From a virus (Duplodnaviria > Heunggongvirae > Uroviricota > Caudoviricetes), in IMG/VR virus record IMGVR_UViG_2778261534_000002: a stretch of 52,137 bases of DNA; one strand, 5' to 3'. The translations under genes were made by a program, and so were the position numbers. The notes beneath the pieces are model-generated. The model was not told the DNA's origin and did no database searches. It worked only from the letters and a program-made list of their open reading frames with translations. Every line of letters starts with the position of its first letter. Within the stretch, counting starts at the first letter, position 1. Of the stretch, positions 10,085 through 50,480 are shown piece after piece.

Positions 10085-10180
10085 TTATGGTGGGGCGTGA
10101 TGGGGAGGCTTCGGCCTGCTGGTTTCGTAAGTGCCAGTCTGTCAACCCTGTCACGTCCTGCCACCTGTTTGACAGCGGGT
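10085..10180 (+). ncRNA. c4-like antisense RNA candidate
   Basis: structured leader upstream of icd-like gene; TCGTAAGT (10125-10132) is complementary to ACTTACGA at the icd RBS (10197-10204); GGC-ttcg-GCC tetraloop hairpin; boundaries approximate. Confidence 0.3.
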
Positions 10181-23280: not shown

Positions 23281-23357
23281 GATGGTGTAGCTCAGTAGGA
23301 TAGAGCAGCAGCCTTCTAAGCTGTCGGTCGGTGGTTCGAATCCACCCACCATCGCCA
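23281..23357 (+). tRNA. tRNA-Arg (anticodon UCU)
   Basis: 77 nt; 7-bp acceptor stem GATGGTG/CACCATC, anticodon loop CTTCTAA, T-loop GGTTCGAATCC, 3' CCA. Confidence 0.9.
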
Positions 23358-23362
23358 ATTTA

Positions 23363-23449
23363 GGGGAGTTAGTCCGTAGGGGTAGCGGGGTAGACTGTAA
23401 ATCTACTGTCATTGCGACTCGGGTGGTTCGACTCCATCACTCCCCACCA
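23363..23449 (+). tRNA. tRNA-Tyr (anticodon GUA), long variable arm
   Basis: 87 nt; acceptor GGGGAGT/ACTCCCC, anticodon arm GTAGA-CTGTAAA-TCTAC, variable-arm stem GTC/GAC, 3' CCA; D-arm atypical. Confidence 0.7.
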
Positions 23450-23453
23450 AATT

Positions 23454-23529
23454 GCCGGTTTAGCTCAGTTGGTAGAGCGCCTGCCTTGTAAGCAGGATGT
23501 CAGCGGTTCGAGTCCGTTAACCGGCACCA
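23454..23529 (+). tRNA. tRNA-Thr (anticodon UGU)
   Basis: 76 nt; TAGCTCAGTTGGTAGAGC D-arm, anticodon loop CTTGTAA, T-loop GGTTCGAGTCC, 3' CCA. Confidence 0.9.
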
Positions 23530-25480: not shown

Positions 25481-25556
25481 GGCCCTTTAGCTCAGTGGTT
25501 AGAGCTGGCGACTCATAATCGCACGGTCACCGGTTCAAGTCCGGTAGGGGCCACCA
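25481..25556 (+). tRNA. tRNA-Ile2 (anticodon CAU, lysidine type) or tRNA-Met
   Basis: 76 nt; very close to E. coli ileX-type sequence as recalled (GGCCC.TTAGCTCAGTGGTTAGAGC...CTCATAA...GGTTCAAGTCC...GGGGCCACCA). Confidence 0.85.
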
Positions 25557-27086: not shown

Positions 27087-27479
27087 ATGGAACAAATCAG
27101 CAGCGCAGAAATTGCGGATATCATGATCAGGGCTGACTGCTATCTGACAGTCACTGAAATTACCACTCTCGCCAAAGAAAAATACCCTCATCTCCATGTT
27201 TCACGAGTAAGTGTAACTAACATCATTCGTCATTTTGTTCGTTCAAGCAGGGCAATCTGTGAGCTGGATGATCGTGTGTATCCACGAAAATACTGGCTAC
27301 ATGGTCTGAACGGATATCAGTTCAAGGTGCGCGGGCGCACGCCTGAATACGGTAGCTTACTGGTTAAAAACTGTAGCAGGAAATCAGTCGAACAGGCGCG
27401 AAAAGAGCAACGAGAGCTGGTGGACATGGCGAATAAGCTGTGGAATGCCGCCGTTAAAAAGCGTGGTGTTGCTTTATGA
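27087..27479 (+). CDS. Lpa-like late promoter activator (tentative)
   Basis: 130 aa immediately upstream of pacA and overlapping its start, the position of lpa (gene 10) in P1; no motif-level support. Confidence 0.3.
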   Translation: MEQISSAEIADIMIRADCYLTVTEITTLAKEKYPHLHVSRVSVTNIIRHFVRSSRAICELDDRVYPRKYWLHGLNGYQFKVRGRTPEYGSLLVKNCSRKSVEQARKEQRELVDMANKLWNAAVKKRGVAL

Positions 27480-30375: not shown

Positions 30376-31413
30376 TTACCAGAGCTTCGCGGCGTACTGC
30401 GTTTGGGGGAATGTGTATCCGTAACGTTCTTCGATTGCTTTGCCGTATTTTTTACGAGCTTCATTCAGTTTAATGCCGGTCAGGTCGTCTCCAGAGGCCA
30501 TCATTACGTCTAACAATTCCAGATCCATTTTATCCAGCCTTGCCATTGCTTCACGTGATGTACGTATCTTACGCTCAATGATATGGCGAATAGCCGGATC
30601 GGCATCCTCCAGCATCTTAGCGGATTTCTGCTTAAGGCTTTCATTGCGAATATCGATGTTCCTTAAGATGTACGACTTCGCAACGTAGCTTGGCTGGTGT
30701 TTTTCCAGGTCACGAACACGATATAAGTTAAAATCGCCGAGAAGGCTGCAAGGTACCGATTCGACGCCAGAATAAATTGTAATGCTCCGGCGTTCACCAA
30801 CATTATTGACAACGGGGATCGTTGTCTTCGGTAGTCTTGCGAAAACCAATGCGCCATGTGCGCCAACTCTAAAGCGAGAAAGGGCATTGCTGCCTTCGAT
30901 GTTTGTTGTCAGCACAACATCTGTATATGCCTCTTTACGCGCCCGGTAGATCTCGCCTTCAGGCTCAGCTTCAAAGAAGCGCTGTTCTTCTTCAAGAGCA
31001 CCTACAATTTGAGAAAAAACCCTATTTTTCAGGCTTTTCTTTATGATTTTGTCGTATTTTTTGAGCAATTGTTCACGTGTAAATGTACGTGTTGTTGTAG
31101 CGCTTTGCACAACAACATGCGTGCTTTGATTGGTGTCCTCAATGATGAATGGGATCGGAGAATATACAGACTCAACAATGTTCGACGCTTTGCCGTCGGC
31201 ATCGCGGCACATGTCAACGAAGGCTTTCCATTCAGCAAGACATTTTTCAGCTTCTTCTAATATGTTTTGGTCATGCGTTAATGCAACATGGCGGAATTCC
31301 TCGCCAGCATAACTGGTATCATGGAAAACAGAGTTTGCGACCACCAGCTCTTTCCACCGTTCAGCGGTTTGCAGGAACCGTTTGTACTCTTTCTCGATCG
31401 ACTTCTTACTCAT
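30376..31413 (-). CDS. c1-locus protein, candidate immunity regulator of unknown family
   Basis: 345 aa at the position of c1/coi in P1 (between pacB and the lox-equivalent site); no similarity to P1 C1 as I recall it; operator-like motif 15-29 nt upstream of its start. Confidence 0.5.
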   Translation of the reverse strand: MSKKSIEKEYKRFLQTAERWKELVVANSVFHDTSYAGEEFRHVALTHDQNILEEAEKCLAEWKAFVDMCRDADGKASNIVESVYSPIPFIIEDTNQSTHVVVQSATTTRTFTREQLLKKYDKIIKKSLKNRVFSQIVGALEEEQRFFEAEPEGEIYRARKEAYTDVVLTTNIEGSNALSRFRVGAHGALVFARLPKTTIPVVNNVGERRSITIYSGVESVPCSLLGDFNLYRVRDLEKHQPSYVAKSYILRNIDIRNESLKQKSAKMLEDADPAIRHIIERKIRTSREAMARLDKMDLELLDVMMASGDDLTGIKLNEARKKYGKAIEERYGYTFPQTQYAAKLW

Positions 31414-37194: not shown

Positions 37195-37584
37195 TCATAT
37201 AGCAGGACTATCATCAAATTCACCGCCCCTGGCGTCATTGATAATGTGGGTGATCACACCAAAAACAGCATTACTGCCCGTGTATCCATCGTCATCTACT
37301 GGTAACGCCTCTTTCTTCCCGGTGCTTAAATCCTCCAGGTGCTGGCGCGGATACTTCCTGTATCTCTTTATGCGATATTCACCCTCCATAGCGCACACAA
37401 GCAGCGAACCATCAACTGGAGTAAGCGAAGAATCAACCACCAGCAAAGCACCCTGCAATATTCCCTCACGGTGATGGCTATCAGCTGCCCGCATGAAGTA
37501 GGTTGCTGATGGATGCCTGATTAGTTGTTGATCAAGAGAAATTCGGCTTTCAACATAATCCGCCGCAGGAGAAGGGAAGCCCAT
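37195..37584 (-). CDS. humD: HumD (UmuD-like S24 peptidase)
   Basis: 129 aa; LexA/UmuD-type fold with Ser-Lys dyad context; LexA box 19 nt upstream. Confidence 0.8.
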   Translation of the reverse strand: MGFPSPAADYVESRISLDQQLIRHPSATYFMRAADSHHREGILQGALLVVDSSLTPVDGSLLVCAMEGEYRIKRYRKYPRQHLEDLSTGKKEALPVDDDGYTGSNAVFGVITHIINDARGGEFDDSPAI

Positions 37585-37602
37585 AGCGTTTTACCTCAAT
37601 GA

Positions 37603-37622
37603 TACTGTTTATTCATACAGTA
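37603..37622. promoter_or_regulatory. LexA (SOS) box
   Basis: TACTGTTTATTCATACAGTA matches CTGT-N8-ACAG consensus. Confidence 0.65.
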
Positions 37623-37774
37623 TACATTGAAAAGGCATAGTTTGTGAAAGCGGGGTTTGTAAGCAACACCGCTGGCGGCAAGGTCTACGTTCACCTTGTC
37701 TCGCTCTTCCTGGCTTTTAGCTGCTATATTTCGATCTGACACAAGAAACCTCCAGGAGTTAGTGGATCGGGCAC

Positions 37775-38125
37775 ATGCACAACAACGTTCTCAATGTTAG
37801 CCGTTCAATTCAGACAATCAGAGACTGCACCAGTGTGGTGGCATCAATCCCATTGCGAAACAGCATAGACGAACTGCAAATTCGTGTATTGAATCTGAAT
37901 CAGGCTAATAAGCAATTGCGCTTTATTTTGACGCTGAAAAGTGAAACAGAGGGGATAAAGCACAGCGTAAAAGTGTTTTCTGAGGCCATTCTGCTTAATG
38001 GGAAGCTCCGGCATCTGGTAAGGCCAGAACGTCAATATCCTGACGTCCTGGCGCGTGAAAAAGACCTTCTTTCTGAAGTTCAGGATAGGGTGATCGATTT
38101 CGTCAAATGCTATCCCCTGCATTGA
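37775..38125 (+). CDS. hypothetical protein
   Basis: 116-aa ORF; competes with an antisense ORF (37844..38122); coding status uncertain. Confidence 0.3.
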   Translation: MHNNVLNVSRSIQTIRDCTSVVASIPLRNSIDELQIRVLNLNQANKQLRFILTLKSETEGIKHSVKVFSEAILLNGKLRHLVRPERQYPDVLAREKDLLSEVQDRVIDFVKCYPLH

Positions 38126-38394
38126 GGGCAGGTGTTCCCTTCCGCAAAGTAGGGAAAACTGCTATCAAGTTCATCACACCATCTGCGATGGTGGTAGCAC
38201 CAAAACGCCTCCCACGGTGCACGGAAATACTTCATCCACCAGGACACTCGATCAGGTATATCTGCTGGTGGCAGTTCTTCTGGCAATAATTTGCCTGATA
38301 ATTCCCTTTCCGCCCGCGACAGCATTTTTTTGAGGCTCGCGTTCTCTTTTTCAAGCTCATCTACGCGCACCTGTAATTCAGCTTTCGTTGGCAT
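38110..38394 (-). CDS. small coiled-coil protein with Cys/His-rich C-terminus
   Basis: 94 aa from ATG 38394 (SD GAGGTGG); CYHHRRWC ... CPQC zinc-binding-like tail; last gene of leftward operon. Confidence 0.4.
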   Translation of the reverse strand: MPTKAELQVRVDELEKENASLKKMLSRAERELSGKLLPEELPPADIPDRVSWWMKYFRAPWEAFWCYHHRRWCDELDSSFPYFAEGNTCPQCRG

Positions 38395-39544
38395 GGTCCA
38401 CCTCATGCTTTTCAGCCACCAGCGGCAATAAAGCCCTGGCCATCTTATGAACCAATAGTGCATCAATAATGCCAAGTGTATGCCCCGGCTTAATGTTTAA
38501 TGCCGCCTCAAGGTGACACCTTTCCAAGCCACTTTTCTCGGCTTGTTTATGATGATCTGGCGTAATAACGTCGCCTAAAACACGGCTAATTCTTTCTCGT
38601 AATTGCTGGGTGCCAGCACACTTGATCGCTGTATCGTGGAGACGGTTAACCAGTTCGCGATAAACATGCGGCTTAATTCGGATACGTTCACCGGTGACGC
38701 CCTTTCCTGGCGCTGGCACCGAACTATCCGGAATATCCGGATAGTTGCCAGCCAGTCTACGCAAAACGGCCTTAACAGCCTCAATACGGTCATCATCGCA
38801 ATTTTCCAGAGTATCTATGCGATCGAGCATGATGATGGCGTTATCAATATCAGGATTGCCGGTCCACTCATTACCGCGATTGGATTCGGCAGCCTGGTTG
38901 CCGCGTACTGGTTGATTATCGGCTTTACCCAGTCTATCGTTGCTGCATGAATGCCCTTCCAGCCAGGCCAATGCTTGTCGCATGAAATACGCAATATGTT
39001 TGCCGTGGTAATCGTCTTCATTGATGTGAAAAGCGATACTGCGGATGTATTCAATTGCGTTTTCAATAGCCTCCGGCGTTATCGGCGCTGACATATTTTG
39101 ATTTTGGAGTGCCAAGACGCGGCTGGCATCCTCAACACCTTTAACGGCATCTGCGCAGTAGTTATAGCGATTGCATTCCACTAACTTCTGCTTGAGGTTT
39201 TCAATTGCTTGCGCGACATCAGCCTGCATTACCGGAACTGGCGGAGTGGTATATAGTTTTCGGCATTTGTTTATCCAACCGGCATGGTCAGGCGTGTCTG
39301 TAAAGCGCAAATCGTTTTCGTAGCCCTCACGACTACGTTCTTTCCATTCCGTCCACGGAACACCGCTATTCCAAGTGGGGCGAGTGCAGGACTGATACAG
39401 AACAGGTTCAGCTTCCAGCGCTGCCAGAGCAATCCGTGCCAGTTCTTCCGCTTCTTCTGCTGGCAGTACAACGTTGCTACCAGGTCCGTATGTTTCGCGC
39501 CACTGCTTGATTGCCAGCAGTCGCTCTTTGGTAATAGTGGTCAT
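38378..39544 (-). CDS. hypothetical protein
   Basis: 388-aa ORF in leftward operon; no recognizable motif. Confidence 0.5.
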   Translation of the reverse strand: MTTITKERLLAIKQWRETYGPGSNVVLPAEEAEELARIALAALEAEPVLYQSCTRPTWNSGVPWTEWKERSREGYENDLRFTDTPDHAGWINKCRKLYTTPPVPVMQADVAQAIENLKQKLVECNRYNYCADAVKGVEDASRVLALQNQNMSAPITPEAIENAIEYIRSIAFHINEDDYHGKHIAYFMRQALAWLEGHSCSNDRLGKADNQPVRGNQAAESNRGNEWTGNPDIDNAIIMLDRIDTLENCDDDRIEAVKAVLRRLAGNYPDIPDSSVPAPGKGVTGERIRIKPHVYRELVNRLHDTAIKCAGTQQLRERISRVLGDVITPDHHKQAEKSGLERCHLEAALNIKPGHTLGIIDALLVHKMARALLPLVAEKHEVDHANES

Positions 39545-39750
39545 TTGTTAATCCTCAAAACTTTATGCCCGGGCGCAAAAGCACGCGTTTTGTCTTTGCT
39601 TATGCGCCAGCCATCCTTGCGCGCCTCTTTTGCACAACCAGACCATGACGTACCGATATACTCACCGAAGTCTGGCACTGGATATACACCTTCCGTACAC
39701 TGGCGGCAGTCACAATAGAGATGCATGGTGTAACTTGCGGCAATAGCCAT
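39541..39750 (-). CDS. small Cys-rich protein
   Basis: 69 aa from ATG 39750; CDCRQC...C motif; RBS region AAAGGAGAGTGATATGG duplicated at the next gene. Confidence 0.4.
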   Translation of the reverse strand: MAIAASYTMHLYCDCRQCTEGVYPVPDFGEYIGTSWSGCAKEARKDGWRISKDKTRAFAPGHKVLRINK

Positions 39751-39751
39751 A

Positions 39752-39946
39752 TCACTCTCCTTTAGTGCGCAAATGGTTTTTCCAGCGGTTTTGCGCCGCG
39801 CTGGGCTTTTTGCAAAAACCACAATCCATCATCCCGTAATATTTCATCAACCCCATCCGTCGGTTGCTGAGTCTCACCCACTGCCAGACGCCAGGAGCGT
39901 TTCTACGAACTAACAGAATCTTTGCTTTACGGTTGTTGGTTGCCAT
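39752..39946 (-). CDS. small basic protein
   Basis: 64 aa from ATG 39946; same duplicated RBS; MDCGFC motif. Confidence 0.35.
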   Translation of the reverse strand: MATNNRKAKILLVRRNAPGVWQWVRLSNRRMGLMKYYGMMDCGFCKKPSAAQNRWKNHLRTKGE

Positions 39947-39947
39947 A

Positions 39948-40709
39948 TCACTCTCCTTTGATGCGAATGCCAGCGGCGCGTGGCACATTAACTTCCACGA
40001 TGCGCACAGTTGGTTTGTACATCTCAATCGCTGTCAGCCAGTCAGCGCCGGTCATATGCTTTTCTGCATCGCCATTAGTCCATTGAACCGGCACACCAAT
40101 AGCTTTCATCGCAATTTCTATTTCCCCGGCAATGGCGCTTTTCCCGCAACCAGTAAAACCAGAGACAACGACAAGAACTTCGCCTTTGGCTGGTTTTATT
40201 TCCCGTGCTTCCAGTTCTGCAATGCGCTTCTCTGCGGCTTCCAGCTTCTCGCGCATATCGTCAACGTACTCGACCAGAGATCCGCCAGCAGGAATTTCGC
40301 ATTCCTCGACCAGTTGGAAGTAGATATCAGCTGCGGCCCGTGTGTTGCTATGCCTAGCGTCGCCCATCTCACCTTCACGAAGAGCATCGCGTTCGGCGGT
40401 AAGATTGGCTATTTTGCTGTCTTTGCCTTCCAGCTCAACGCGCAGCCTCCCAACCGTAAGCGCAATATCCTCGTTCTCCTGGTCGCGGCGTTTGATGTAT
40501 TGCTGGTTTCTTTCCCGTTCATCCAACAATGCCAGCGCGATATCTGGCGAAAAGTGCTTCATAAAATCGTTAAGCGCATTAATTCGCTGATCGAAAGGCA
40601 TTACAGGTGCTTCACCGGCAATTTTTGTTTTTTCAGCGATTTCACGAAGCTTTTGATAATCAATCTGGCTCACTGGTTGCCTCCTTTGCGGAGTTGCGCT
40701 TCGATGCAC
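39948..40709 (-). CDS. coiled-coil protein with C-terminal Walker A-like motif
   Basis: 253-aa ORF (start uncertain); central coiled coil; GFTGCGKS P-loop-like motif near C-terminus. Confidence 0.45.
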   Translation of the reverse strand: MHRSATPQRRQPVSQIDYQKLREIAEKTKIAGEAPVMPFDQRINALNDFMKHFSPDIALALLDERERNQQYIKRRDQENEDIALTVGRLRVELEGKDSKIANLTAERDALREGEMGDARHSNTRAAADIYFQLVEECEIPAGGSLVEYVDDMREKLEAAEKRIAELEAREIKPAKGEVLVVVSGFTGCGKSAIAGEIEIAMKAIGVPVQWTNGDAEKHMTGADWLTAIEMYKPTVRIVEVNVPRAAGIRIKGE

Positions 40710-40909
40710 GAAAAAAAAGACTCCCGAGTATGACTGTTAAGAGCTGGTGCGAACGCCGCGTTAAGAACGGCAGCATCACAGCCGTCATCAATATAGAGCG
40801 CAATTTTTTTCTCCAGGCGCGCTTTGGCTTCCTGCAACTGCATACCCCGGCACGCACGCGGGATATAATCAGCAATTTGAGCGATAGCTTTTTCGTTCTG
40901 TTTAAACAT
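40670..40909 (-). CDS. hypothetical protein
   Basis: 79-aa ORF, overlapping neighbours in operon. Confidence 0.35.
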   Translation of the reverse strand: MFKQNEKAIAQIADYIPRACRGMQLQEAKARLEKKIALYIDDGCDAAVLNAAFAPALNSHTRESFFSCIEAQLRKGGNQ

Positions 40910-41105
40910 GCTTCACCTCGATAGGCTTGATGGTGTCTAACAGCAGTCGACGGCGCGTATTTTCTGCAAAGTGGCGGCGTCCGGTATCTTTGTGGTAAAA
41001 CTCATTTTTGCCGACGACCCACATCCGCTCTGTTTGGTGCAGTTTTTTTACCTGCGGACCGTCTTTGGTGATCACGGTGCCGGTATGGGTTTTTACGATT
41101 GTCAT
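40902..41105 (-). CDS. hypothetical protein
   Basis: 67-aa ORF in operon. Confidence 0.35.
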   Translation of the reverse strand: MTIVKTHTGTVITKDGPQVKKLHQTERMWVVGKNEFYHKDTGRRHFAENTRRRLLLDTIKPIEVKHV

Positions 41106-41188
41106 GCCACTACCTCTTCGAACAGATGAACGAGACAGGCCGATGCTCGTCCACCTGAAAAACTGACGATTTGATGCATACTCACGGT

Positions 41189-41881
41189 TTATTCCTGAAT
41201 GCGCTTAAACTCGATTACCCATACCCACGGGTTAGATAGCCAGTTATCCTGCCCGTAAATACTGCGCCAGATATCACCAAAACCAACGCGATAAACAGCT
41301 TCCGGCGGCGTAATTTTGTACATCGCCGGAGATGCGCCTTCTGCTTTAGCATCTGCCTCGCTCATATCACGCAGCCGTTCCACACGCACGTCGGTAATTT
41401 CCAGCAAAATGCGCGATGCCCAGCGCGGCATGTGAATTGATGGACGCCACCCGCCATCAAATTTTTCATTCACAGTGTGAGGTTTCCAGTCGGCATCATC
41501 GGGTATCGACCACAAGCCGTAATCACCCGGCTTTTGCTCACAACTGGCCCGATAAATCCTTGCTGCGTTCTTCTCATCGCCACGACAAAGGTTGTCGTTC
41601 CAGTCCACACTGCAACCATCCTCATTGCCTAATATCGCCCACGCCTCACGGACCCATATGCGATCACCAACGTTACCGAACGGGCATAAACCATGTTCAG
41701 GTGCATCCATAACGTGGGTATAGACACCATTGCGTTTCTTTGTCGGTTTACGGATAACCAGGCAGTTATCGGCCCTGACATTTTTTACAGGTCGGCGAGT
41801 CTGCGTCTTCCTTCCTTCGAGGATGGCCCTGACCATCTCATCGTTAAAAATCATCCCGCGTTCTTTCATTTTTTGATCCAC
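41189..41881 (-). CDS. ASCH-domain protein
   Basis: 230 aa; MIFNDEMVRAILEGRKTQTRR block typical of ASCH/PUA-like domains; start may be an internal Met. Confidence 0.5.
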   Translation of the reverse strand: MDQKMKERGMIFNDEMVRAILEGRKTQTRRPVKNVRADNCLVIRKPTKKRNGVYTHVMDAPEHGLCPFGNVGDRIWVREAWAILGNEDGCSVDWNDNLCRGDEKNAARIYRASCEQKPGDYGLWSIPDDADWKPHTVNEKFDGGWRPSIHMPRWASRILLEITDVRVERLRDMSEADAKAEGASPAMYKITPPEAVYRVGFGDIWRSIYGQDNWLSNPWVWVIEFKRIQE

Positions 41882-41885
41882 CTCA

Positions 41886-42881
41886 TCAGTTATTGAAAGT
41901 GATCACTCCGCGCTCGATGGCGAAGTCAAAAAGCTGGTTAGCGGCTACGTAAAGGCGTATGCCATGTGCTTTTTCCCATGCCCGGACATCGTTTTCTGCG
42001 CTTCTGGCGCAGTCATCGCAAAGAGGAACAGCCCAGCGGTCGTGTTCGTTTAACGAGCGGGCGCGGTACATGAACGGGTGGTTAACTTTGCCACCGCATC
42101 CGATGCACGGACGAGAAACCACAAACCGGAGATAAGCCGGGCTTTTACCGAGGACCGCTTTTGGTCGGCGCATATAAAGCAGGCCGGAATCCTCATCTAC
42201 AGACAGGTTGACGATCTGCTCTGCGGTTATGTCCACCAGCTCGCGGGTACTGTGCTCCCAGGTGATATCTGATTCTTTCAGCGTACCGGTAGGGATTTCA
42301 GTTTTTGGCTGACAAAATGCAATGCGACCGGCTTCATCTGGTAGCTCATCTTTCAGATTCCGGCGAATGGCCCAAAAAGTGAGTTCAACCATGCTCAGAT
42401 CGCGTTCTGGCGGTAGTTTTAACTCGCTCGCAGCCCAGTTCATAACCCAGTTGGCACGATTCAGGGATAACTGGTCGTCCAACTTGCTGTACCCCTTCAT
42501 CATGTATTCCGCATCATGCTTCCAGCACAGGCGAACGGCAGAGCCGTTATAGAAATGAGTGGTTAGCTGGTGGCTGCAATCGCGCTTATCGTGCGCCTGG
42601 CAATCGTGGATATTGGAACTTACCCAATGAACAAGCGAATCTTCACCGCCCAACGCGTTAAATACGCGCTCGCTTTGAAAAAACGGTTTCAGAGACTGGT
42701 TGGCAACCAGCGAATAATTCAGATCCACTACGCCATCTGGCGTGTTTTCAGCCTGTTCACGCGGAAGTGGGGAGATAATGAAACGGCGACCTGCGCCAAT
42801 GTAGTTACTGGTGGGCTTGTCTACCGGAAAGACAGCCACACCAGCTCCGTTTACGAAATGAGGTGTGATTATTGCACTCAT
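41886..42881 (-). CDS. hypothetical protein with C-terminal zinc-ribbon-like motif
   Basis: 331 aa; CIGCGG ... CDDC cysteine pairs near C-terminus; operator-like motif 40-75 nt upstream. Confidence 0.5.
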   Translation of the reverse strand: MSAIITPHFVNGAGVAVFPVDKPTSNYIGAGRRFIISPLPREQAENTPDGVVDLNYSLVANQSLKPFFQSERVFNALGGEDSLVHWVSSNIHDCQAHDKRDCSHQLTTHFYNGSAVRLCWKHDAEYMMKGYSKLDDQLSLNRANWVMNWAASELKLPPERDLSMVELTFWAIRRNLKDELPDEAGRIAFCQPKTEIPTGTLKESDITWEHSTRELVDITAEQIVNLSVDEDSGLLYMRRPKAVLGKSPAYLRFVVSRPCIGCGGKVNHPFMYRARSLNEHDRWAVPLCDDCARSAENDVRAWEKAHGIRLYVAANQLFDFAIERGVITFNN

Positions 42882-42922
42882 AATGTATACCGACTCTGTT
42901 TTGTTCCGAGCGGTAAAATAAT

Positions 42923-42953
42923 ATGTTAGAAAACTAAAATCAATGTTCTAACA
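42923..42953. promoter_or_regulatory. operator-like motif pair
   Basis: ATGTTAGAAAACTAA (42923-42937) plus partial inverted copy TGTTCTAACA (42944-42953). Confidence 0.45.
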
Positions 42954-42978
42954 AATTTTGAGTGCGTAAATGATTTGA

Positions 42979-43701
42979 TCAGACTTTAAGCTGCCCTCCC
43001 TTCACCTGCATTAGCGTCAGATTTCCGCAAAAAACCGCGCCCGTGTCTATGTAGTGCTGATTCCAGTATGCTTTTGGTCTTCGTACCGGTGTGTGCCCAA
43101 AGATAAAGCGATCTGCGCCTGTGATTTCTCCACCAATGCCATCTATCGAATCACCGACGCGACTGCGCGACCAGACAACATCAAAAAGCGACACATCCTT
43201 ACCGAACTGGTACTCTCCACCTGGATAGTCGGCATGGGCTATAACGATAGTTTCATGCCCGGTGTTCAACTCAATGATATATGGCAGACGCTTTACCAGC
43301 TCCACCAGCGCCTTGGCTAATATTTCCTGATCAGTGTCCAGCATGAAGAACCATTGTCCGCCATTCATTAGCCAGTTATTCACGTTGCCATCAGGACTTA
43401 ACGCATCAAGCATCAACCGCTCATGGTTCCCCATTACTGCCCTGAACCAGGGCATCTGCAATAGTTCCAGACATTCGACATTTTCAGTACCGCGATCGAT
43501 AAGGTCGCCAACCGATATCAGTAAATCCTGCGCCGGGTCAAAATCCACACGATGGAGTTCGGACATCAGTCTGGTGTAGCAACCATGCAGATCACCAACA
43601 ACCCATATGTTTCTGTAGCCAGAACCATCAATACGGCTATATAAATTCACTTCATGCATAGCCTGGATCATGCGGCAACCTTCTCCCGCAGCCAGATACA
43701 A
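42979..43701 (-). CDS. Ser/Thr protein phosphatase (calcineurin-like metallophosphoesterase)
   Basis: 240-aa ORF; GDLHG, GDLIDRG and GNHE metal-binding motifs in the order seen in lambda-type phosphatases. Confidence 0.8.
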
Positions 43702-43979
43702 ACTGGACCATCTTCAGTGTCATGAATAGAGCCAACAAACCAGCCTTCACCCTCTGGTCGCTCCGGTTCCCAGGCGGCAATATCGGGACCAGCTGCGTCC
43801 AGATCAAAATCATCTTCATCCATACTGCGAATAGTCCACTGAAGATTATTTTCCTTCATCCAGGCGTCAAATTCCTCAGTGGAAATATATTCACGGCCTG
43901 CGCAAAACTTTTCATACTCCGGATGTGTCCAGCAGCCATATTCATCACGTTCTACCGGCATTTCTTTAATTGTGCTCAC
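43668..43979 (-). CDS. hypothetical acidic protein
   Basis: 103-aa ORF in operon. Confidence 0.4.
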
Positions 43980-44200
43980 TCTTCATCCTCCAAGTCGGCA
44001 ACGGCATCCATCACATCAGAACCGCGAATAAACTCAAAAGCACGGCAAGCCATTTCAAACACCTGTTGTTCTTGCGGATGCGGTGACTCCCAATACTTAA
44101 AACCAGGTCGATGCTCGTAACCCATCATGGAATAAAAATCGCCAGCAAGTTCAATCGCGGCATCAACAAGTTCGCGATTTGTCATCGTCTGTTCTGTCAT
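43976..44200 (-). CDS. hypothetical acidic protein
   Basis: 74-aa ORF; 4-nt overlaps with neighbours. Confidence 0.4.
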   Translation of the reverse strand: MTEQTMTNRELVDAAIELAGDFYSMMGYEHRPGFKYWESPHPQEQQVFEMACRAFEFIRGSDVMDAVADLEDEE

Positions 44201-44505
44201 TTTGTTTTCTCCTGTCTGAACATCACTATCATCAGGTCGCCTTTTGTCGCTATCCTCGCTGTTGTGCCTGGTTCAATGCTGCCAAGTTCAAATGCGTCAT
44301 AGAACGCTTCTAATGCCTTCTGGCGTAGTTCCTGTTTGCGCCGTTTTTTCCACTGTTTCAGGAAAATGGAACCCAGCCATCGCCATGTACGGGACATGAT
44401 GTAAAGCCAACCGAGAAGTGCCAGACCGGTATTTAGGGCCGTATCGAGCGTTATCGTGGTGTCGATATTCACTGGCTGCTTCCTTTGCGAATCTGTTCCG
44501 CCCAT
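44197..44505 (-). CDS. hypothetical membrane protein
   Basis: 102 aa; hydrophobic helix LALLGWLYIMS followed by basic stretch. Confidence 0.4.
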   Translation of the reverse strand: MGGTDSQRKQPVNIDTTITLDTALNTGLALLGWLYIMSRTWRWLGSIFLKQWKKRRKQELRQKALEAFYDAFELGSIEPGTTARIATKGDLMIVMFRQEKTK

Positions 44506-45254
44506 TCTTCAAGGGATTTCTCCGCATATTCACCGGACAGGCCATCAAGCGGATGCGGTTCATTAGCCAACTCTTCTTTCGCTGACAAAATCATGCGTGT
44601 AACGTCGAAAACTTCACGCAAAGACTTATTGATAAATCCGTGATTGAACGCAGCAGCAAGACGGCTTGCGGTGTAGTTAATCCCCTCGTTGCGTGCCTCC
44701 GCACGTACTTCAGCCAGGAAAGCGTCGGTGGCCGGAGTTTCAGGAATCCGTCTCCTCATCAGTTCTATTGCATGATTGAACCCGAAATCTTCCGCGAGAG
44801 ATACGTCATCCATATTGTCATTGTCATCCTCAATATCCCGTGATTCTGGAATTGCAGACTTTATTCCCGCATTCTCCGCCGCCAGCGCCGCGCAATTACC
44901 CTCCAGCTCTGCAATGCGCTGTTTTGCGGCATCAAGTTCAATCGATAATTTTTCCAACTGCTCTTTATGCTTCTTGTATTCCTGATATGCGTGCCAGGAC
45001 TGACCTTTGCGCACACTATCAGTAATATCAGTAATCTGTTCTGGTGTTAGCGTGGTCAGTGGCTGTGCTGGAAAAATCATCACTTGCCCGGCATCCCAAT
45101 CAAAACCCACCTGAATTGACTGAACCTCAACTGATGGTGTTGAACCGATGCGACCAGGCGAATGAACAACGATCGTTACATCCATATCGCGACGATGGCT
45201 GTGGTTGTTGGACAAAATACGATTCACCAACTCAGAAAATTTGGAAAATTTCAT
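44469..45254 (-). CDS. coiled-coil paralog A (Ea22-like family)
   Basis: 261 aa from ATG 45254 (ATGA overlap with upstream gene); shares coiled coil ([15 protein letters not shown]) and C-terminal block ([19 protein letters not shown] ... EQIRKG) with 45574..46242 and 46239..46748. Confidence 0.5.
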
Positions 45255-45577
45255 GCTGATTCCCTTTGCTCTTCCTGGATAATGTTGTTGCAATCTTTCA
45301 CGCACTCGTTGCAGATGAAAACGTTGTCCCCGGCAATTAACTTTTTAACGGTGTGCTGGGATTTGTTACAGAAGCTGCAATAAAGCGTTGGACTGGCTGA
45401 TACGGATGGTGCGCCAGATGTCAGCCGCGCGATGTCGTTCTTGCGACGCAATATCACACGGCTGCACTCGACCAGCATCTCCGGGGATATCTTCTCCTCC
45501 GTAGCGAGCGTTTCTAATCGTTCGAGTATGTGGAAGGCTTTTTCCTGGGTAATTGCAGAATGCGATGTGGTCATCAT
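45251..45577 (-). CDS. protein with ClpX-type zinc-finger domain
   Basis: 108 aa; C-terminal [35 protein letters not shown] closely matches the ClpX N-terminal C4 zinc-binding domain pattern. Confidence 0.6.
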
Positions 45578-46242
45578 CTTTTCCCTTCAAAGTTCGGGCG
45601 CAGGCAGGATTGTCCTTTACGAAGCAGGGCTGCGAACCTGTCAGCCGCATCCGCGCAAGCAGAAGCAACGGAATCAAAAAATGGATCATCTCCGGTATCG
45701 CGCATCGTCAAAGCGAATGCCTCCAATCCCTGAGCCTGTATTTCAACAAGGTAAGCTTCAGATGTAGTGCTTTTCACCTCGCCTAATTTGTTATGAGCTA
45801 TGTTCGCTACACATGCGATGTCTATATCTGGATGATTAATTGGGAGATGGCTAAGAATTTCCTCAAGTGCTGCTTTTTTGTTTTGGCATTCCGCCACCAG
45901 CGCCCCGCAATTGCTTTCCAGCTCTGCAATACACTTTTTAGCGGCTTCCAGCTCAACACGCAGATTCTCAAGCGTTAGAGCCATCTCCACGTTCTCGTCC
46001 AGCAGTTCAATCACATCAGGATCGCTATCATCAACTACTGTTATGCGCGATTTTTTGTAATGCTCGTCAGCATAAGTTCGTCCAGTTTTGAAGCATCCGT
46101 CTTCCTCCATGCCAGAACAGGCATAAACAACATGTGATCCAGATATGCGCTGCATTGACATTTCCTCGCCACAAACAGAGCATTTAGGCGCTGGTTTCGG
46201 TGAAAAACGTTCACGTAACGTCTGATAATAAAGCTCGCTCAC
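45574..46242 (-). CDS. coiled-coil paralog B (Ea22-like family)
   Basis: 222 aa; N-terminal Cys cluster, coiled coil [29 protein letters not shown]. Confidence 0.5.
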
Positions 46243-46748
46243 TGGATGACTCCTTTACGAAGCTGTTCGGCGATATCTTCGAGAACGCCATCAGAGAATG
46301 AGCGGTCAAAATCGCCTTCCGGCGCATTAGCCATAAACTCAGTAGAGGTAAGAATCATCCGGGCAATATCCGCGGCGTTCTTCGCAGTATCATCAATAAA
46401 ACCAGCTACCCAGGCAGCCAGCATTCTGTTCGCCACAAAGTAAGCGCCCTCCTTGCGTGCTTCAGTCTTCACTTCATCCAGGAAAGTGTCGGTCGCAGGA
46501 GTAGTTTTTTGTGGTGATAGGGCGATACGAATTGTTTCAAGAGCTGGATCTATTTCCACTGTTGGCACCTTGATAAAACCAAGCTGCACGCCATTCATAA
46601 TGAACGTGCGGCGATCCTCACATATCGCCTTCAGTCTCGCATTCTCCGCAGCCAGCGCCGCGCGCTCTTTCTCAAGTCGGGAAATTTCCGTTACATACTC
46701 AGCGTTACGCTCTGCCAGTTGTGCGGGCGTTAAACCTTCAGACTTCAT
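46239..46748 (-). CDS. coiled-coil paralog C (Ea22-like family)
   Basis: 169 aa; coiled coil and C-terminal block TPATDTFLDEVKTEARKEG ... EQLRKG. Confidence 0.5.
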   Translation of the reverse strand: MKSEGLTPAQLAERNAEYVTEISRLEKERAALAAENARLKAICEDRRTFIMNGVQLGFIKVPTVEIDPALETIRIALSPQKTTPATDTFLDEVKTEARKEGAYFVANRMLAAWVAGFIDDTAKNAADIARMILTSTEFMANAPEGDFDRSFSDGVLEDIAEQLRKGVIQ

Positions 46749-47055
46749 ACACTCTCCTTTCGAAATAAACGTACTGATTAATCATGCCCAGGGGCATTTC
46801 GAGTTTTTCCGCGATCTCACGGCGGGGAACACCACACTGATGAAGCTGCCGTGCCAGTTCTATATCGCTCTGCCGGTATTTGGCTGACGGATGAAAGTCT
46901 CCTTTCAGAATCATGCTGATCCCCAACTCCCGCGCTTTAGTCCTGACGGCATCACCGGTACGACCGATCAGCTTCCCAATACTCTCGACCGTCATAGTTC
47001 CGGCGCACTGGCGGAGTATCATGATTTCTGCCCTTCCCCATCCCCGCCAGCTCAC
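46738..47055 (-). CDS. HTH DNA-binding protein
   Basis: 105 aa; two helix-turn-helix-like segments (TVESIGKLIGRTGDAVRTKAREL; VPRREIAEKLEMPLG). Confidence 0.45.
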   Translation of the reverse strand: MSWRGWGRAEIMILRQCAGTMTVESIGKLIGRTGDAVRTKARELGISMILKGDFHPSAKYRQSDIELARQLHQCGVPRREIAEKLEMPLGMINQYVYFERRVYEV

Positions 47056-47678
47056 GCCGACATCCTCTGAGACATAAACTCCACAAAACGAACTGCATCT
47101 TCAGAAACAACGCCGCATGACTTCAGATAATTCATTGCGTCATTAGGTAGCGGATTAGTTGGTTCGGCATTTGCCAGGGATTGAGATAAACGCGTGATTA
47201 ATTTGACCATTCTCCGCTGCCGGAGGTTGTATCCTTCAGCTAAAGACAGGTAACTGGAAAGGGTATTGCTTAAGCGGGCGCGAAGCTGATCCGTGCCGTG
47301 ACATTCAATAGCAACATCACGTAATGCATCGACCAGTTCACGGTAAAGATGCGCTGCCATTCTGCAATCTGTGTCAGATGGTGCTTCATAAATTACCGTC
47401 AACCCCAGTTTTTCAGCCAGAGCGTGTTCTGCACGTGCTCCTGCGGACACATCCCATCCCTTAAGCAGATAGATCGCATCAGCAGAACGCACCATTGCCA
47501 GACAAATATCCATGTATTCGCTCTGGCAGAGGCCAGCAGGTAACAGCGCCGGATTCAGAACAATATGCCCTTCCTCCATCAGCTCTTTTGCTTTCGAAAA
47601 AAACGCTGTGCGGTTGTAGTCGGGATAACCAGTCATCGGCCCCGCGATGTAAATTTTCAAAACACATCTCACCATCAA
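47052..47678 (-). CDS. DUF4406-like (nucleoside 2-deoxyribosyltransferase-like) protein
   Basis: 208 aa; N-terminal IYIAGPMTGYPDYN ... LLKGWDVSAGARAEHALAEKLG resembles the nucleoside 2-deoxyribosyltransferase-like fold; extra C-terminal domain; first gene of leftward operon. Confidence 0.45.
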   Translation of the reverse strand: MMVRCVLKIYIAGPMTGYPDYNRTAFFSKAKELMEEGHIVLNPALLPAGLCQSEYMDICLAMVRSADAIYLLKGWDVSAGARAEHALAEKLGLTVIYEAPSDTDCRMAAHLYRELVDALRDVAIECHGTDQLRARLSNTLSSYLSLAEGYNLRQRRMVKLITRLSQSLANAEPTNPLPNDAMNYLKSCGVVSEDAVRFVEFMSQRMSA

Positions 47679-47868
47679 AATTTCCCCAGCATCGTGACGA
47701 AAAACATCAGCACGGCAAAAAGCTCAATACCTAATTCAAGTAGCGCCAACGCCCCGAAAAAAAACACATAGAACAGGCCAATCTCATTCACAGATGGCTG
47801 GTGGATCGCACTTAAAGCTATAAGCATCATGTCCTCCAAACATTTATCAGTGATGATATTAATGTTTT

Positions 47869-47883
47869 GTGTTAGAAAATCAA
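47869..47883. promoter_or_regulatory. operator-like 15-bp motif in divergent promoter region
   Basis: GTGTTAGAAAATCAA with partial inverted partner TATCTAACC 10 nt downstream. Confidence 0.4.
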
Positions 47884-47947
47884 TTTTGAATATCTAACCA
47901 TTTTGATCAATCATAGAAAAATCGTTGAAAAGTAAGAGACTGCCATC

Positions 47948-48526
47948 ATGCAGAAACAGAGTTATTGGGAGAAACAGAGACAAAAAGCCATGCAAAAATT
48001 GGCTGACCCGGCCTGGCGAGAGGAACAAAGGGCAAAGCGCCTTCAACAAGCTCAACGCCAGCAGCAGCGAGCGAGAGAAAAAGCCGCATCGCCTGAATAT
48101 CGGCAAAAGAAAATTGAAAAAGCAAAACAATATGAACAGCGGAGAAAAGATAAATCTGTATCCGCTCCGCCCAAAAAAACACGCACGTCACGCGGCCTGA
48201 AGGGCAGATCACTCACAGCCGATGAACGCCGGATACAGACCGCTATCGGTACTCTCCCCTGCATTGCCTGCCATATTCACGGGCAACATAGCCCAGTGGT
48301 ATCCCTGCACCATATCTTCGGGAGAACGGCAGAGAACGCGCATAAATATGTCCTCCCTTTGTGTAAATGGCACCACCAGTACGCAGCGCCAGCCGAGGTC
48401 CGAGACCAATATCCCTGGCTGGTCCCTGTTCATGCTGATGGAAAAATAGGCGGAAAAGCAGATTTCATGCGGCACAATGCCGATGAAATGACGTTGTATC
48501 TGATGGCGATTGAATTGATAAATTAG
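47948..48526 (+). CDS. Ref-like HNH endonuclease
   Basis: 192 aa; K/R/Q-rich low-complexity N-terminal 80 aa followed by Cys/His motifs CIACHIHG ... LHHIFG ... CKWHHQ, the architecture described for P1 Ref. Confidence 0.5.
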   Translation: MQKQSYWEKQRQKAMQKLADPAWREEQRAKRLQQAQRQQQRAREKAASPEYRQKKIEKAKQYEQRRKDKSVSAPPKKTRTSRGLKGRSLTADERRIQTAIGTLPCIACHIHGQHSPVVSLHHIFGRTAENAHKYVLPLCKWHHQYAAPAEVRDQYPWLVPVHADGKIGGKADFMRHNADEMTLYLMAIELIN

Positions 48527-48537
48527 TTTTCTAACAT
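48523..48537. promoter_or_regulatory. operator-like 15-bp motif (consensus copy)
   Basis: TTAGTTTTCTAACAT overlapping the ref-like stop; followed by -35 TTGAAT / -10 TACATT-like promoter. Confidence 0.4.
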
Positions 48538-49025: not shown

Positions 49026-49131
49026 AAATACAGACTGTTGCGCCCTGGCATTATCGTGGGGTATATTTCTACGGCACCTTAGAAAAACGGGTGCCGGGAT
49101 TGGAACCCCGGATAATGTCAAAGGCGACACA

Positions 49132-49153
49132 GACGCCGAAAGCGTCTTTTTTT
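49132..49153 (+). terminator. rho-independent terminator
   Basis: GACGC-cgaaa-GCGTC followed by TTTTTTT. Confidence 0.65.
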
Positions 49154-49169
49154 GTGTCATGCCATCGCA

Positions 49170-49300
49170 CAGCCATACGTAGCGTTTAGCTCAGAGATCA
49201 ATGGTAGTGCTGGCTGGGCTGCCGAAAGGCAGGCCGGTTCCCTTTGACGCCGGTAGTTCCAACCCAGTCAGTGCTACCGCCATTGAGATTGGAACCTCAC
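49170..49300 (+). ncRNA. c4-like antisense RNA candidate (module 2)
   Basis: structured leader upstream of second icd-like gene; CCTTTGAC (49232-49239) is complementary to GTCAAAGG at the icd RBS (49311-49318); CTGCC-gaaa-GGCAG hairpin; boundaries approximate. Confidence 0.3.
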
Positions 49301-49338: not shown

Positions 49339-49554
49339 ATGGCTACTATCCCCACCCCAACTCATTCTGAATTTATCTGGCGTTTCTATTCCTGCCAAAA
49401 ACACCTCTATATCTGCGTCATGGCTGCAACCGAAGCAGAAGCGCGCTCATACCTTCCCGAAGAACCCTGCATTTTTGCTGCTCGCTTCACTCTTGATGCG
49501 ATGGAGATCCTCAATTACTGGAATCTGCCGATGAACTGCGTGGAGGTGCACTGA
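49339..49554 (+). CDS. Icd-like small protein of immunity module 2
   Basis: 71 aa; paralog of 10215..10439; SD AAGGAGG; stop overlaps ant start. Confidence 0.5.
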   Translation: MATIPTPTHSEFIWRFYSCQKHLYICVMAATEAEARSYLPEEPCIFAARFTLDAMEILNYWNLPMNCVEVH

Positions 49555-50480
49555 TGAATCTGTCCATCTCTCAAAAAGCGACAATGACCAGCATTGAGAT
49601 CGCGGAACTGGTAGGTAAGCGCCCTGATAACGTTAAACGCACCATTGAACACCTGGCGGAACGGGGGGTAATATCTTTTCCTCAAATTGAGGAAAAGCCC
49701 ACCGCAGGCCGCCCGGCGAGCTATTACGTCTTCGAAGGCGAGCAAGGCAAGCGCGATAGTATTGTCGTCGTCGCACAGCTCTCTCCCGAATTTACCGCCC
49801 GGCTGGTGGACCGCTGGCGCGAACTGGAGAATGCCCGGGTACAGTTAAAATCAAAAGCCGAAATCCTGGCTGAAATGGCGCAAATGCATCTTGAGCATGA
49901 ACGCCGGATCAACGCCGTTAATGCCCAGGTAGCCGAAGTATCGGCACAAGTGTCCAAAGTCGCTGAAACCGTCGAGCAAATCAAGAAAGGCAATATGCCG
50001 GAAGGCTACATTGGCTACCGCCAGCTGGCGGCGAAATGTGGCCTGACTGAAGCCAAATGCCGCAACCTTGTCAACGCTTACCGGATTCCCACCGATACGC
50101 ATGAGTTTTTAACTCCAGATGGTTTGCTTGCGAGACGCTCCATTGTGGCCCTGGCCCCCTTCCGGAAAGCCTTTAAGCAGGTGATGTCGGAGGCAGAACC
50201 ACGCAATAAACGCTGGTATCATCCAAAGATGGGGATGTTTCAGGCAATCCACCATCCTGTGCCTGAAAGTCCAAAGGCAAACCTGTCGTTGCATACCGCC
50301 AGAGAGAGGATTAAAACAGGGTATGCAATCGTATGCCGTCGAGCATCTTGGCCTGAAGGTGTATGGGTATGGCCCGAAGGTGGATCACGAAAGCACTGGC
50401 GCACTATCCGGGATGGGAAAATCCATGCGATTGATTTAGCTCCAGAGGATGTTGTTGCTACGGACTGGATTGTTAGTTAA
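49554..50480 (+). CDS. antirepressor (Ant-like) fused to C-terminal DUF2829-like domain
   Basis: 308 aa; first ~235 aa paralogous to 10439..11146; last ~60 aa (CRRASWPEGVW ... VATDWIVS) paralogous to the separate 66-aa ORF 11143..11343. Confidence 0.55.
   Translation: MNLSISQKATMTSIEIAELVGKRPDNVKRTIEHLAERGVISFPQIEEKPTAGRPASYYVFEGEQGKRDSIVVVAQLSPEFTARLVDRWRELENARVQLKSKAEILAEMAQMHLEHERRINAVNAQVAEVSAQVSKVAETVEQIKKGNMPEGYIGYRQLAAKCGLTEAKCRNLVNAYRIPTDTHEFLTPDGLLARRSIVALAPFRKAFKQVMSEAEPRNKRWYHPKMGMFQAIHHPVPESPKANLSLHTARERIKTGYAIVCRRASWPEGVWVWPEGGSRKHWRTIRDGKIHAIDLAPEDVVATDWIVS

Follow-up and report, generated by a model that had tools for sequence, protein, structure and literature searches.

A mosaic block of 20 leftward genes in a D6-like phage-plasmid: a probable early, repressor-controlled accessory region in two transcription units

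We examined a leftward block of 20 genes (positions 38110-47830, minus strand) in a 52,137-nt stretch of DNA from IMG/VR virus record IMGVR_UViG_2778261534_000002; the whole stretch is called the window here, and all positions refer to it. By its gene content, the window is a D6-like phage-plasmid of the P1 family. The block most likely consists of about 20 small, dispensable cargo genes that are off under the main repressor of the element and on early in lytic growth. We put at roughly 80% the probability that it is an early, repressor-controlled accessory region of this phage-plasmid, organized as two transcription units. The best-supported interpretation is that this early accessory region would be silent in the lysogen and would play a role like that of the ea/exo-xis and nin regions of lambda. 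P1/D6-type phage-plasmids are known for early accessory regions under C1 control; the block is probably a mosaic example of one, already annotated publicly.

Gene calls were taken from the RefSeq annotation of a 100%-identical plasmid, with window position equal to locus position plus 34109. The 9.6-kb block was 100% identical at the nucleotide level to about ten non-mobilizable plasmids of ~92 kb from Salmonella enterica and Escherichia coli. Its counterpart in Escherichia phage D6, a plasmid prophage related to P1, is orf88-orf105, with 93.5% identity across 70% of the block; segments of the block also matched Stx-converting phages, phiV10, and Yersinia phages at >90% identity. The block has ref on one flank and hot-humD-phd-doc on the other, a position syntenic with P1/D6-type genomes. 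Elsewhere in the window we found further hallmarks of P1 and D6, namely, holin, portal, and head genes, repL, a DarB-like SNF2 protein, a pmgS-like gene, tRNAs, an Lpa-like activator, the pacA/pacB terminase, a Cre-like recombinase, a dUTPase, doc-phd, humD, ref, and two C4-antisense-RNA immunity loci.

The 20 minus-strand genes are consecutive and have a coding density of 97.5%. Thirteen of the 19 gene junctions overlap by 1 to 17 nt, mainly as ATGA or GTGA. Only three gaps exceed 20 nt (56, 83, and 139 nt), and the 56-nt gap would vanish if the GTG start at 47055 were taken, as in D6, instead of the RefSeq ATG. A first-pass annotation of the window had described a leftward operon of tightly packed or overlapping accessory genes with mixed predicted activities. 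The packed, leftward accessory block was borne out. Its right edge had been placed wrongly at 47678, since the head gene (47675-47830) was missed and the block ends at 47830. The annotation had also spoken of many ORFans (open reading frames [ORFs] without known relatives); all 20 products matched PHROG families (E values of 2e-21 to 1e-109), so none of them is an ORFan, and one of the matched families has at least 8000 homologues. An automatic scan found no convincing intrinsic terminator inside the block. The only strong minus-strand terminator downstream is at 35724-35695, past doc and pdcA.

The evidence for repressor control comes from a repeated sequence motif. Operator-like sites had been proposed at the head of the block and inside it (TGTTAGAAAA at 47869 and 42923), and both proved to be copies of an asymmetric 16-mer, AATTAGTTTTCTAACA, that in most cases has YA directly after it. 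The window contains 11 copies of this motif compared to 0.5 expected, and none of 100 shuffled sequences reached 11. Both sites in the block (47870-47885 and 42924-42939/42938-42953) are inverted pairs of identical geometry, with two 16-mers overlapping by 2 nt, and recall the operators annotated as "bivalent" in P1. The sites and the genes next to them are as follows.

47870-47899: head operator; strong half at 47870-47885 (minus strand), AATTGATTTTCTAACA, and degenerate inverted partner at 47884-47899 (plus strand), TTTTGAATATCTAACC. The copy at 47870-47885 lies 63 nt upstream of ref; P1 counterpart, Oref, upstream of ref.
47948-48526, plus strand: ref (RecA-dependent nuclease; phrog_2321), divergent from the block.
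42924-42953: internal bivalent operator; 42924-42939 (minus strand), TTTTAGTTTTCTAACA, and 42938-42953 (plus strand), AATCAATGTTCTAACA, overlapping by 2 nt.
48521-48536: operator copy across the ref stop codon; P1 counterpart, Omat, also across the ref stop codon.
20800 and 22049: operator copies flanking the pmgS-like gene; P1 counterparts, Op86a/b and Op88.
20838-22046: pmgS-like gene.
26993: operator copy before the lpa-like gene; P1 counterpart, Olpa.
27087-27479: lpa-like gene, encoding the Lpa homologue.
31426: operator copy abutting the start of the gene at 30376-31413 (13 nt upstream); P1 counterparts, the c1 operators.
8650: operator copy before repL; P1 counterpart, presumably Op53.
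9856 and 48521: operator copies before the two C4-RNA immunity loci; P1 counterpart, which we take to be Op51.

The head operator is common to the block and the divergent ref gene. It is retained in D6 and in sequences L007 and L008, and in L007 the partner is a perfect copy, giving a full inverted pair. The position of the internal operator is retained in the same three sequences; its weaker plus-strand half was found only in L001 and L007. The strong half-sites are identical in D6 and in two plasmids with differing cargo. The gene at 30376-31413 (minus strand) encodes a 345-amino-acid (aa) protein that is 21% identical to P1 C1 (pairwise E value of 2e-8) and adjoins pacB, as c1 does in P1. 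This product is probably the D6-type immunity repressor with a changed operator specificity, and we read the motif as its predicted operator. The P1 C1 operator, ATTGCTCTAATAAATTT, had a single match in the window, with 3 mismatches, at the internal operator; 15 of 100 shuffled sequences had at least one such match, so this match is not significant, and we rejected the P1-type operator as the site used here. In the literature searched, which did not include the D6 and P1 genome papers, we found no papers on D6 operators.

At both block sites, inspection by eye revealed promoter-like sequences that overlap the operators.

47856-47883, minus strand: putative promoter PL1; -35 TTGATT (47883-47878), 16-nt spacer, -10 TAATAT (47861-47856).
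42915-42943, minus strand: putative promoter PL2; -35 TTGATT (42943-42938), 17-nt spacer, -10 TATTTT (42920-42915).

In putative PL1, the operator core lies in the spacer, and a GGAGG sequence and the ATG at 47830 follow; putative PL2 lies ahead of the DUF968 gene. Four other motif copies exactly fill the 16-nt spacer between TTGnnA and a -10-like hexamer, usually TAnnnT. We therefore propose the following model.

In the plasmid-prophage state, the C1-type repressor encoded at 30376-31413 (minus strand) would bind asymmetric operators of ~16 to 18 bp with the consensus AATTAGTTTTCTAACAYA. The two inverted pairs, at 47.87 and 42.93 kb, would cover leftward sigma-70 promoters, and because operators cover both promoter regions, the block is predicted to be silent in the lysogen. 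Upon C1 inactivation or infection, host RNA polymerase would transcribe two units, the first from 47830 to 42979 (11 genes, with the lambda-type phosphatase gene last) and the second from 42881 to 38110 (9 genes). Since no intrinsic terminator separates the units, read-through can occur; it might give one message of ~9.7 kb, and the transcript may extend into hot-humD-phd-doc, up to the terminator at 35724-35695. The ATGA/GTGA overlaps, together with Shine-Dalgarno sequences within the 3' end of the preceding gene, would couple translation. The cargo would consist of shuffled small cassettes from a common pool of temperate enterobacterial phages, including four Ea22-type genes and genes for the phosphatase, ASCH/PmgT-like, DUF968, DUF4406, DUF4752, and ClpX zinc-domain proteins. 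This cargo probably adjusts host physiology and the balance between lysis and lysogeny instead of helping to build virions. The C1 binding, promoter activity, expression timing, transcript extents, and biochemical roles in this model are what we infer from the observed gene content, homologies, motif enrichment, and positional match to the P1 operators.

Several observations weigh against this model. Putative PL1 and PL2 are weak (8/12), below the scanner threshold, and were not called by the automatic scan. The second half-site of the head operator is degenerate in the window (9/16). With just 21% identity between the C1 homologue and P1 C1, the homologue is assigned as the motif-binding protein on the basis of position and analogy. 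Finally, a convergent plus-strand ORF (37775-38125) shares 16 nt with the last gene of the block and might restrict read-through.

We considered whether the block is instead one operon of ~10 kb with a single head promoter, as first described, with the internal site serving as an auxiliary operator that acts by looping or as a roadblock. The genes lie on the same strand throughout, are closely spaced with 97.5% coding density, and are not interrupted by an intrinsic terminator, so that read-through from a head promoter is plausible. However, the internal site occupies the only long gap (97 to 139 nt, at 42.9 kb, after the phosphatase gene), where an inverted operator pair with the same geometry as that at the head overlaps its own promoter-like sequence (TTGATT-17-TATTTT). 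Moreover, the corresponding P1 positions (OpmgRa/b and OpmgT) are annotated with their own promoters, and the syntenic region of P1 is annotated as several C1-controlled units. A single operon is thus unlikely, and two units with possible read-through fit better. We think it slightly less likely still that the motif serves a second repressor, an antirepressor-linked regulator, or a nucleoid protein rather than C1. Its sequence does differ from that of the P1 operator, to which the window has just the one nonsignificant match. Against this, the motif copies match the positions of P1 C1 operators at ref (two sites), pmgS, lpa, c1, repL, and immI, and the motif and the P1 operator, when aligned, have a TCTAA core in common; since C1 itself is strongly diverged, an altered operator sequence is expected.

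Two other explanations concern the purpose of the cargo. Lysogenic conversion or defense genes, expressed from the resident plasmid prophage for the benefit of the host, might be expected in accessory, hypervariable cargo adjoining a toxin-antitoxin pair and humD, and lambda Ea22 is known to favor lysogeny (PMC7093339, PMC10834534). We nevertheless regard such an island as very improbable, given that none of the 20 proteins matched a PADLOC defense model at an E value of <=0.001, that the putative immunity operators cover both promoter regions, and that the genes, unlike typical morons, do not each have a promoter and a terminator of their own. The least probable of the explanations is a late, morphogenetic cluster driven by Lpa-dependent promoters, which the P1 pmg names ("putative morphogenetic function") would suggest. 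Two genes of the block are homologous to P1 pmgT and pmgU, and some database homologues are labeled "morphogenetic protein." However, P1 pmgL-pmgV, ppp, and pap are nonessential for plaque formation, with the exceptions of pmgR (by deletion) and pmgN (by CRISPR interference) (PMC10695390). The predicted activities (phosphatase, ASCH, HNH-like, and Ea22) are nonstructural, and other phages carry these cassettes in their early operons. Pattern searches found no P1-type late promoter (-22 box plus -10) in the block or anywhere else in the window, a weak negative since the D6 late-promoter consensus is not established.

The genes of the block, which we assign to an early, repressor-controlled region with two units, are listed here from head to tail, all on the minus strand.

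47675-47830: gene 1, 51-aa hydrophobic peptide; phrog_8890 (E value of 2e-33); GGAGG ribosome-binding site.
47052-47660: gene 2, DUF4406 (nucleoside 2-deoxyribosyltransferase-like) N-terminal domain plus a C-terminal module; Pfam E value of 1.3e-34; phrog_355 and phrog_21459.
46738-47055: gene 3, small putative helix-turn-helix (HTH) DNA-binding protein; phrog_323, "transcriptional regulator, D5-like" (E value of 1.9e-21); weak HTH matches in Pfam.
46239-46748: gene 4, 169-aa paralogue of the Ea22-like C-terminal region; phrog_14548, phrog_614, and phrog_368.
45574-46242: gene 5, Ead/Ea22-like coiled coil with an N-terminal CxxC...C and 10 cysteines; Pfam Ead_Ea22 E value of 5.6e-12.
45251-45574: gene 6, 107 aa, a 60-aa N terminus plus a ClpX-type C4 zinc-binding domain; Pfam zf-C4_ClpX E value of 1e-17.
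44469-45254: gene 7, Ead/Ea22-like, 261 aa; Pfam E value of 2.4e-8.
44197-44472: gene 8, DUF4752 protein; Pfam E value of 1.9e-41.
43976-44200: gene 9, 74-aa conserved hypothetical protein; phrog_4132 (E value of 6e-42).
43668-43979: gene 10, 103-aa conserved hypothetical protein; phrog_1372 (E value of 6e-54).
42979-43671: gene 11, lambda-type Ser/Thr phosphatase (homologue of P1 Ppp and lambda NinI), last of unit 1.
41886-42881: gene 12, DUF968/HNH-like (P1 PdcB-like); Pfam DUF968 E value of 6e-45; phrog_96.
41189-41869: gene 13, homologue of the N-terminal part of P1 PmgT, with an ASCH-like core and an insertion of ~75 aa.
40902-41105: gene 14, 67-aa conserved hypothetical protein; phrog_1226 (E value of 2e-42).
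40670-40909: gene 15, 79 aa, ending in an Ea22-type ...QLRKGGNQ* junction; phrog_1344; repeat D5.
39948-40673: gene 16, Ead/Ea22-like coiled coil plus a C-terminal Walker-A module of ~72 aa (SGFTGCGKS ... VRIVE); Pfam E value of 1.6e-18.
39752-39946: gene 17, 64 aa (CGFC); phrog_1380; junction AAAGGAGAGTGATATGGC.
39541-39750: gene 18, 69 aa (CDCRQC...C); phrog_926; junction repeat AAAGGAGAGTGATATGGC.
38378-39544: gene 19, 388-aa mosaic protein, part of which is 95% identical in nucleotide sequence to the P1 pmgT-3'/pmgU region.
38110-38394: gene 20, 94 aa, with a leucine-zipper-like N terminus and a Cys/His-rich C terminus, last of the block; phrog_3797 (E value of 2e-59).

The lambda-type phosphatase proposed earlier was confirmed in gene 11. 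It matches Pfam Metallophos and, over residues 10 to 226, the lambda phosphatase structure 1G5B (E value of 1.4e-93); the metal-binding motifs of the PPP family (GDLHG, GDLIDRG, and GNHE) are all present, and the gene is 89% identical to P1 ppp at the nucleotide level. Its start is likely at 43671, compared to the 43701 given before. Alternative starts exist for gene 3 (GTG at 47055 in the D6 annotation or ATG at 46995 in RefSeq) and gene 12 (ATG at 42881 in D6 or GTG at 42839 in RefSeq). The proposed zinc-ribbon protein corresponds to gene 6, whose ClpX C4 zinc finger matches both Pfam and the ClpX N-domain structure 1OVX (E value of 1e-15). The assignment of gene 13, which is 80% identical to P1 pmgT at the nucleotide level, as an ASCH protein was weakly supported. 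A GRKTQTRR motif of the ASCH type (GxKxxxxR) and the Foldseek matches favor it; the Pfam ASCH match is below the cutoff (E value of 0.004; 18.2 bits versus 21.2, with 27 residues matched). The best Foldseek matches of its AlphaFold2 core (predicted local distance difference test [pLDDT] score, 70 to 89) were the ASCH proteins YqfB, 3S9X, EF3133, and PH0355, with probabilities of up to 0.97 (YqfB) but E values of 0.03 and TM scores of 0.2 to 0.4. Residues 75 to 151 form a low-confidence insertion that interrupts the ASCH-like core.

The block contains four Ea22-type paralogues with differing C-terminal modules. Three of its genes passed the cutoff of 27 bits for Pfam PF13935 (Ead_Ea22), with scores of 68, 35.1, and 46.8 bits, and the fourth is related through PHROG families only. 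The cassette of gene 7 is absent from D6, where the alignment has a gap at 44484-45269. Gene 20 gave weak bZIP matches. PDB sequence searches returned nothing useful for the Ea22-like/P-loop protein or the DUF4406 protein. Gene 2 (47052-47660) and gene 19 (38378-39544) have in common a module of ~35 residues, HVYRELVNRLHDTAIKCAGTQQLRERISRVL and HLYRELVDALRDVAIECHGTDQLRARLSNTL (phrog_21459), which suggests domain shuffling within the block.

Some gene junctions recur. The sequence CGYAAAGGAnnCAnCCAGTGA occurs three times in the block, where it encodes the C-terminal ...RKGxxQ* of Ea22-type proteins, provides a Shine-Dalgarno sequence, and overlaps the GTG start of the next gene; the C terminus of the gene 4 product, ...LRKGVIQ*, for example, overlaps the next GTG start. 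A second junction sequence, AAAGGAGAGTGATATGGC, occurs twice, at genes 17 and 18. The latter accounts for the duplicated ribosome-binding site that had been noticed at 39541-39946, a translation-initiation repeat of 24 nt, 92% identical, with its copies 196 nt apart. The two tiny proteins encoded there had been called Cys-rich, an overstatement for products with only 4 and 2 cysteines. These recurrent junctions may serve both translational coupling and recombination, and their conservation makes them likely recombination joints. We found no Rfam RNA family inside 38110-47900. RNA folding was unremarkable for the gap at 41.1 kb (z score of -1.0) and for the 3' end (z score of +0.6), and the fold at 42.9 kb (z score of -3.8) merely reflects the inverted operator pair. 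A hairpin at 46990-47060 (minus strand; -30.1 kcal/mol; z score of -3.5) has no U-tract, is at the junction between the DUF4406 and HTH genes, and probably lies within coding sequence.

Two products suggested specific biochemical activities. The zinc-binding domain (ZBD) of gene 6 is identical at 28 of 41 residues to that of E. coli ClpX (1OVX/2DS5), and the CSFC and CNEC ligands are kept. The domain is C-terminal, preceded by a unique N terminus of 60 residues, and the 107-aa protein has no AAA+ ATPase module; therefore, it is not a ClpX. Members of the family occur only in enterobacterial prophages and phage-plasmids. We speculate that the gene 6 product may act as a phage decoy of the ClpX N-terminal ZBD, made early in lytic growth. 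Such a decoy could titrate ClpX adaptors or N-domain-dependent substrates, or it could heterodimerize with the ClpX N-domain, and either route, if true, would reprogram ClpXP proteolysis. Substrates that depend on the N-domain or on ClpXP include the Phd antitoxin, lambda O, and MuA, and phd lies in the neighboring hot-humD-phd-doc segment. We found no papers on phage ClpX-zinc-domain proteins in the literature searched. In the P2-like prophage contigs L010 to L012 (6001-7443), the ClpX-zinc-finger, 169-aa, and Ea22-like genes form a trio that ends the early operon, after gpA and a ParM/StbB-type partition pair. The presence of this trio in P2-like prophages indicates that the cassette moves between unrelated phage backbones.

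The GFTGCGKS motif that had been pointed out in a coiled-coil protein belongs to gene 16 and is nearly invariant through a family of 446 clusters (50% identity). The ~72-residue module, with the consensus GEVLVtVSGfTGsGKSAiAGEIEI...THADW...YKPRVRIVE, is mobile, being found at the C or N termini of proteins of 110 to 623 residues. In gene 16 it has a Walker A sequence, GxxxxGK[ST], after a beta-strand (VLVVVSGFTGCGKS), and alignment A2 shows no variation at the G, T, G, G, K, and S residues. Subthreshold Pfam matches to APS_kinase, AAA_16, and ParA all fell on the Walker-A segment. The module also has an hhhhE sequence (VRIVE), but at ~72 aa it is too short for a canonical P-loop fold (at least 5 strands and a Walker B motif). 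A fold search was uninformative because the AlphaFold2 model was of low confidence (pLDDT score of 63). The module may be a natural minimal nucleotide- or phosphate-binding domain that is active only when oligomerized through the coiled coil, an idea not found in the literature searched. We hold the two proposals, the ClpX-ZBD decoy (45251-45574) and, separately, the minimal Walker-A domain (39948-40673), jointly to be tentative and rather doubtful.

Other features of the window lie outside the block. The convergent plus-strand ORF at 37775-38125 is conserved (116 aa; phrog_2594; D6 orf106), and its position is roughly that of the oppositely oriented lxr in P1. A perfect LexA box, CTGTTTATTCATACAG, at 37605-37620 is directly upstream of humD (UmuD'-like; 37195-37584), as in P1, and overlaps a truncated hot gene (37596-37742; 48 aa) at its 3' end. 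Clustered tRNA genes, four in all, are at 23281-23526 and 25481-25553, downstream of the pmgS-like gene and the operator copy at 22049. Each of the two immI-like loci, at 49074-49284 and 9962-10168, has an operator copy before it and an icd-like gene and an antirepressor-type ORF after it. C4 antisense RNAs were found at 49197-49284 (77 bits) and 10083-10168 (70 bits), with an isrK-like RNA at 49074-49152 and c4 a1b1 targets at 9962-10014. A loss of ant downstream of icd was ruled out by an intact 308-aa ORF at 49554-50480. Ahead of the holin gene (713-1039), a palindromic element at 678-700 (plus strand), CTGACTAAGTTAGTG, looks like the -22 boxes in P1 late promoters. It may be a late promoter of the D6 type; the block contains no similar element.

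These results identify the window as a D6-like phage-plasmid and give a candidate operator consensus and a predicted regulon for a D6-type C1 repressor that is very diverged from that of P1. What stays conserved in this hypervariable region is the regulatory scaffold and the gene junctions, and cargo is traded with lambdoid, epsilon15-like, and P2-like phages. That cargo is part of a large pool of early temperate-phage genes without assigned function; two of its products, the protein with the ClpX zinc domain and the one with the mini Walker-A module, provide concrete biochemical hypotheses. Nothing in the block challenges current understanding, and the practical value is modest.

The closest known system is D6 (NC_050154.1/MF356679.1; Gilcrease and Casjens 2018, cited in PMC6799933), in which orf88-orf105 occupy the same slot between ref and hot-humD-phd-doc. 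Its first genes (small peptide, DUF4406, and HTH) are those of the block, and so is a DUF4752-x-x-ppp segment, after which come the operator and the DUF968 gene. The common segments are 91 to 98% identical to the block in nucleotide sequence, and both operator positions are kept. In contrast, cassettes are replaced at 39255-39541, 40684-41884, 44484-45269, and 46264-46630; the second of these holds three genes in the window, including the PmgT/ASCH-like gene, and the third is the extra Ea22-like gene. In other D6-like plasmids, these slots are filled by PAPS-reductase, DUF551, Eaa, or short ASCH genes.

The syntenic order in P1 (AF234172) is pmgL...ppp...pmgS-pap-pmgT-pmgV-upfM-O-hot-humD-phd-doc, with several units headed by C1 operators (Op82, Oppp/Op83, OpmgRa/b/Op86a/b, and OpmgT/Op88) that overlap sigma-70 promoters. 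As we read it, the block is the counterpart of the C1-controlled pmgN-ppp and pmgT-pmgV units of P1, where C1 binding is recorded in the annotation; for the block, it is predicted from sequence. The P1 counterpart genes are transcribed during lytic infection (bioRxiv 10.64898/2025.12.28.696737), and pmgT-humD is one of eight hypervariable regions in P1-like phage-plasmids (PMC9603915). Only three coding segments are common to the window and this P1 region, namely, ppp (89%), the N-terminal part of pmgT (80%), and pmgT-3'/pmgU (95%); hot, humD, and phd-doc, further left, are also held in common. Most of the genes are unrelated, the operators differ (AATTAGTTTTCTAACA versus ATTGCTCTAATAAATTT), and the C1 proteins are 21% identical. 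In addition, ref adjoins the block here, and the pmgS-like gene is elsewhere.

The exo-xis/ea and nin regions of lambda and Stx phages resemble the block in their Ea22-type proteins, NinI-type phosphatase, and small, overlapping, uncharacterized genes. Like the block as we interpret it, they are early, repressor-controlled mosaics of exchangeable cassettes. Lambda Ea22 itself is an early, pro-lysogenic protein that forms a tetrameric coiled coil with a variable C-terminal domain (PMC7093339, PMC10834534). Lambdoid regulation differs in its CI/Cro operators and N/Q antitermination, elements of which none were identified in the block, and the host element of the block, unlike lambda, is a myovirus-type plasmid prophage. 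The epsilon15-like phage phiV10 has homologues of block genes in gp47, gp48, gp51, and gp52, which are at the distal end of its early operon, after the replication genes, and P2-like prophages carry ClpX-zinc-finger, 169-aa, and Ea22-like cassettes, again at the distal end of the early operon. These cassettes are identical to those of the block or close relatives of them. Both have backbones and repressors other than those of the block, with which they have only subsets of cassettes in common.

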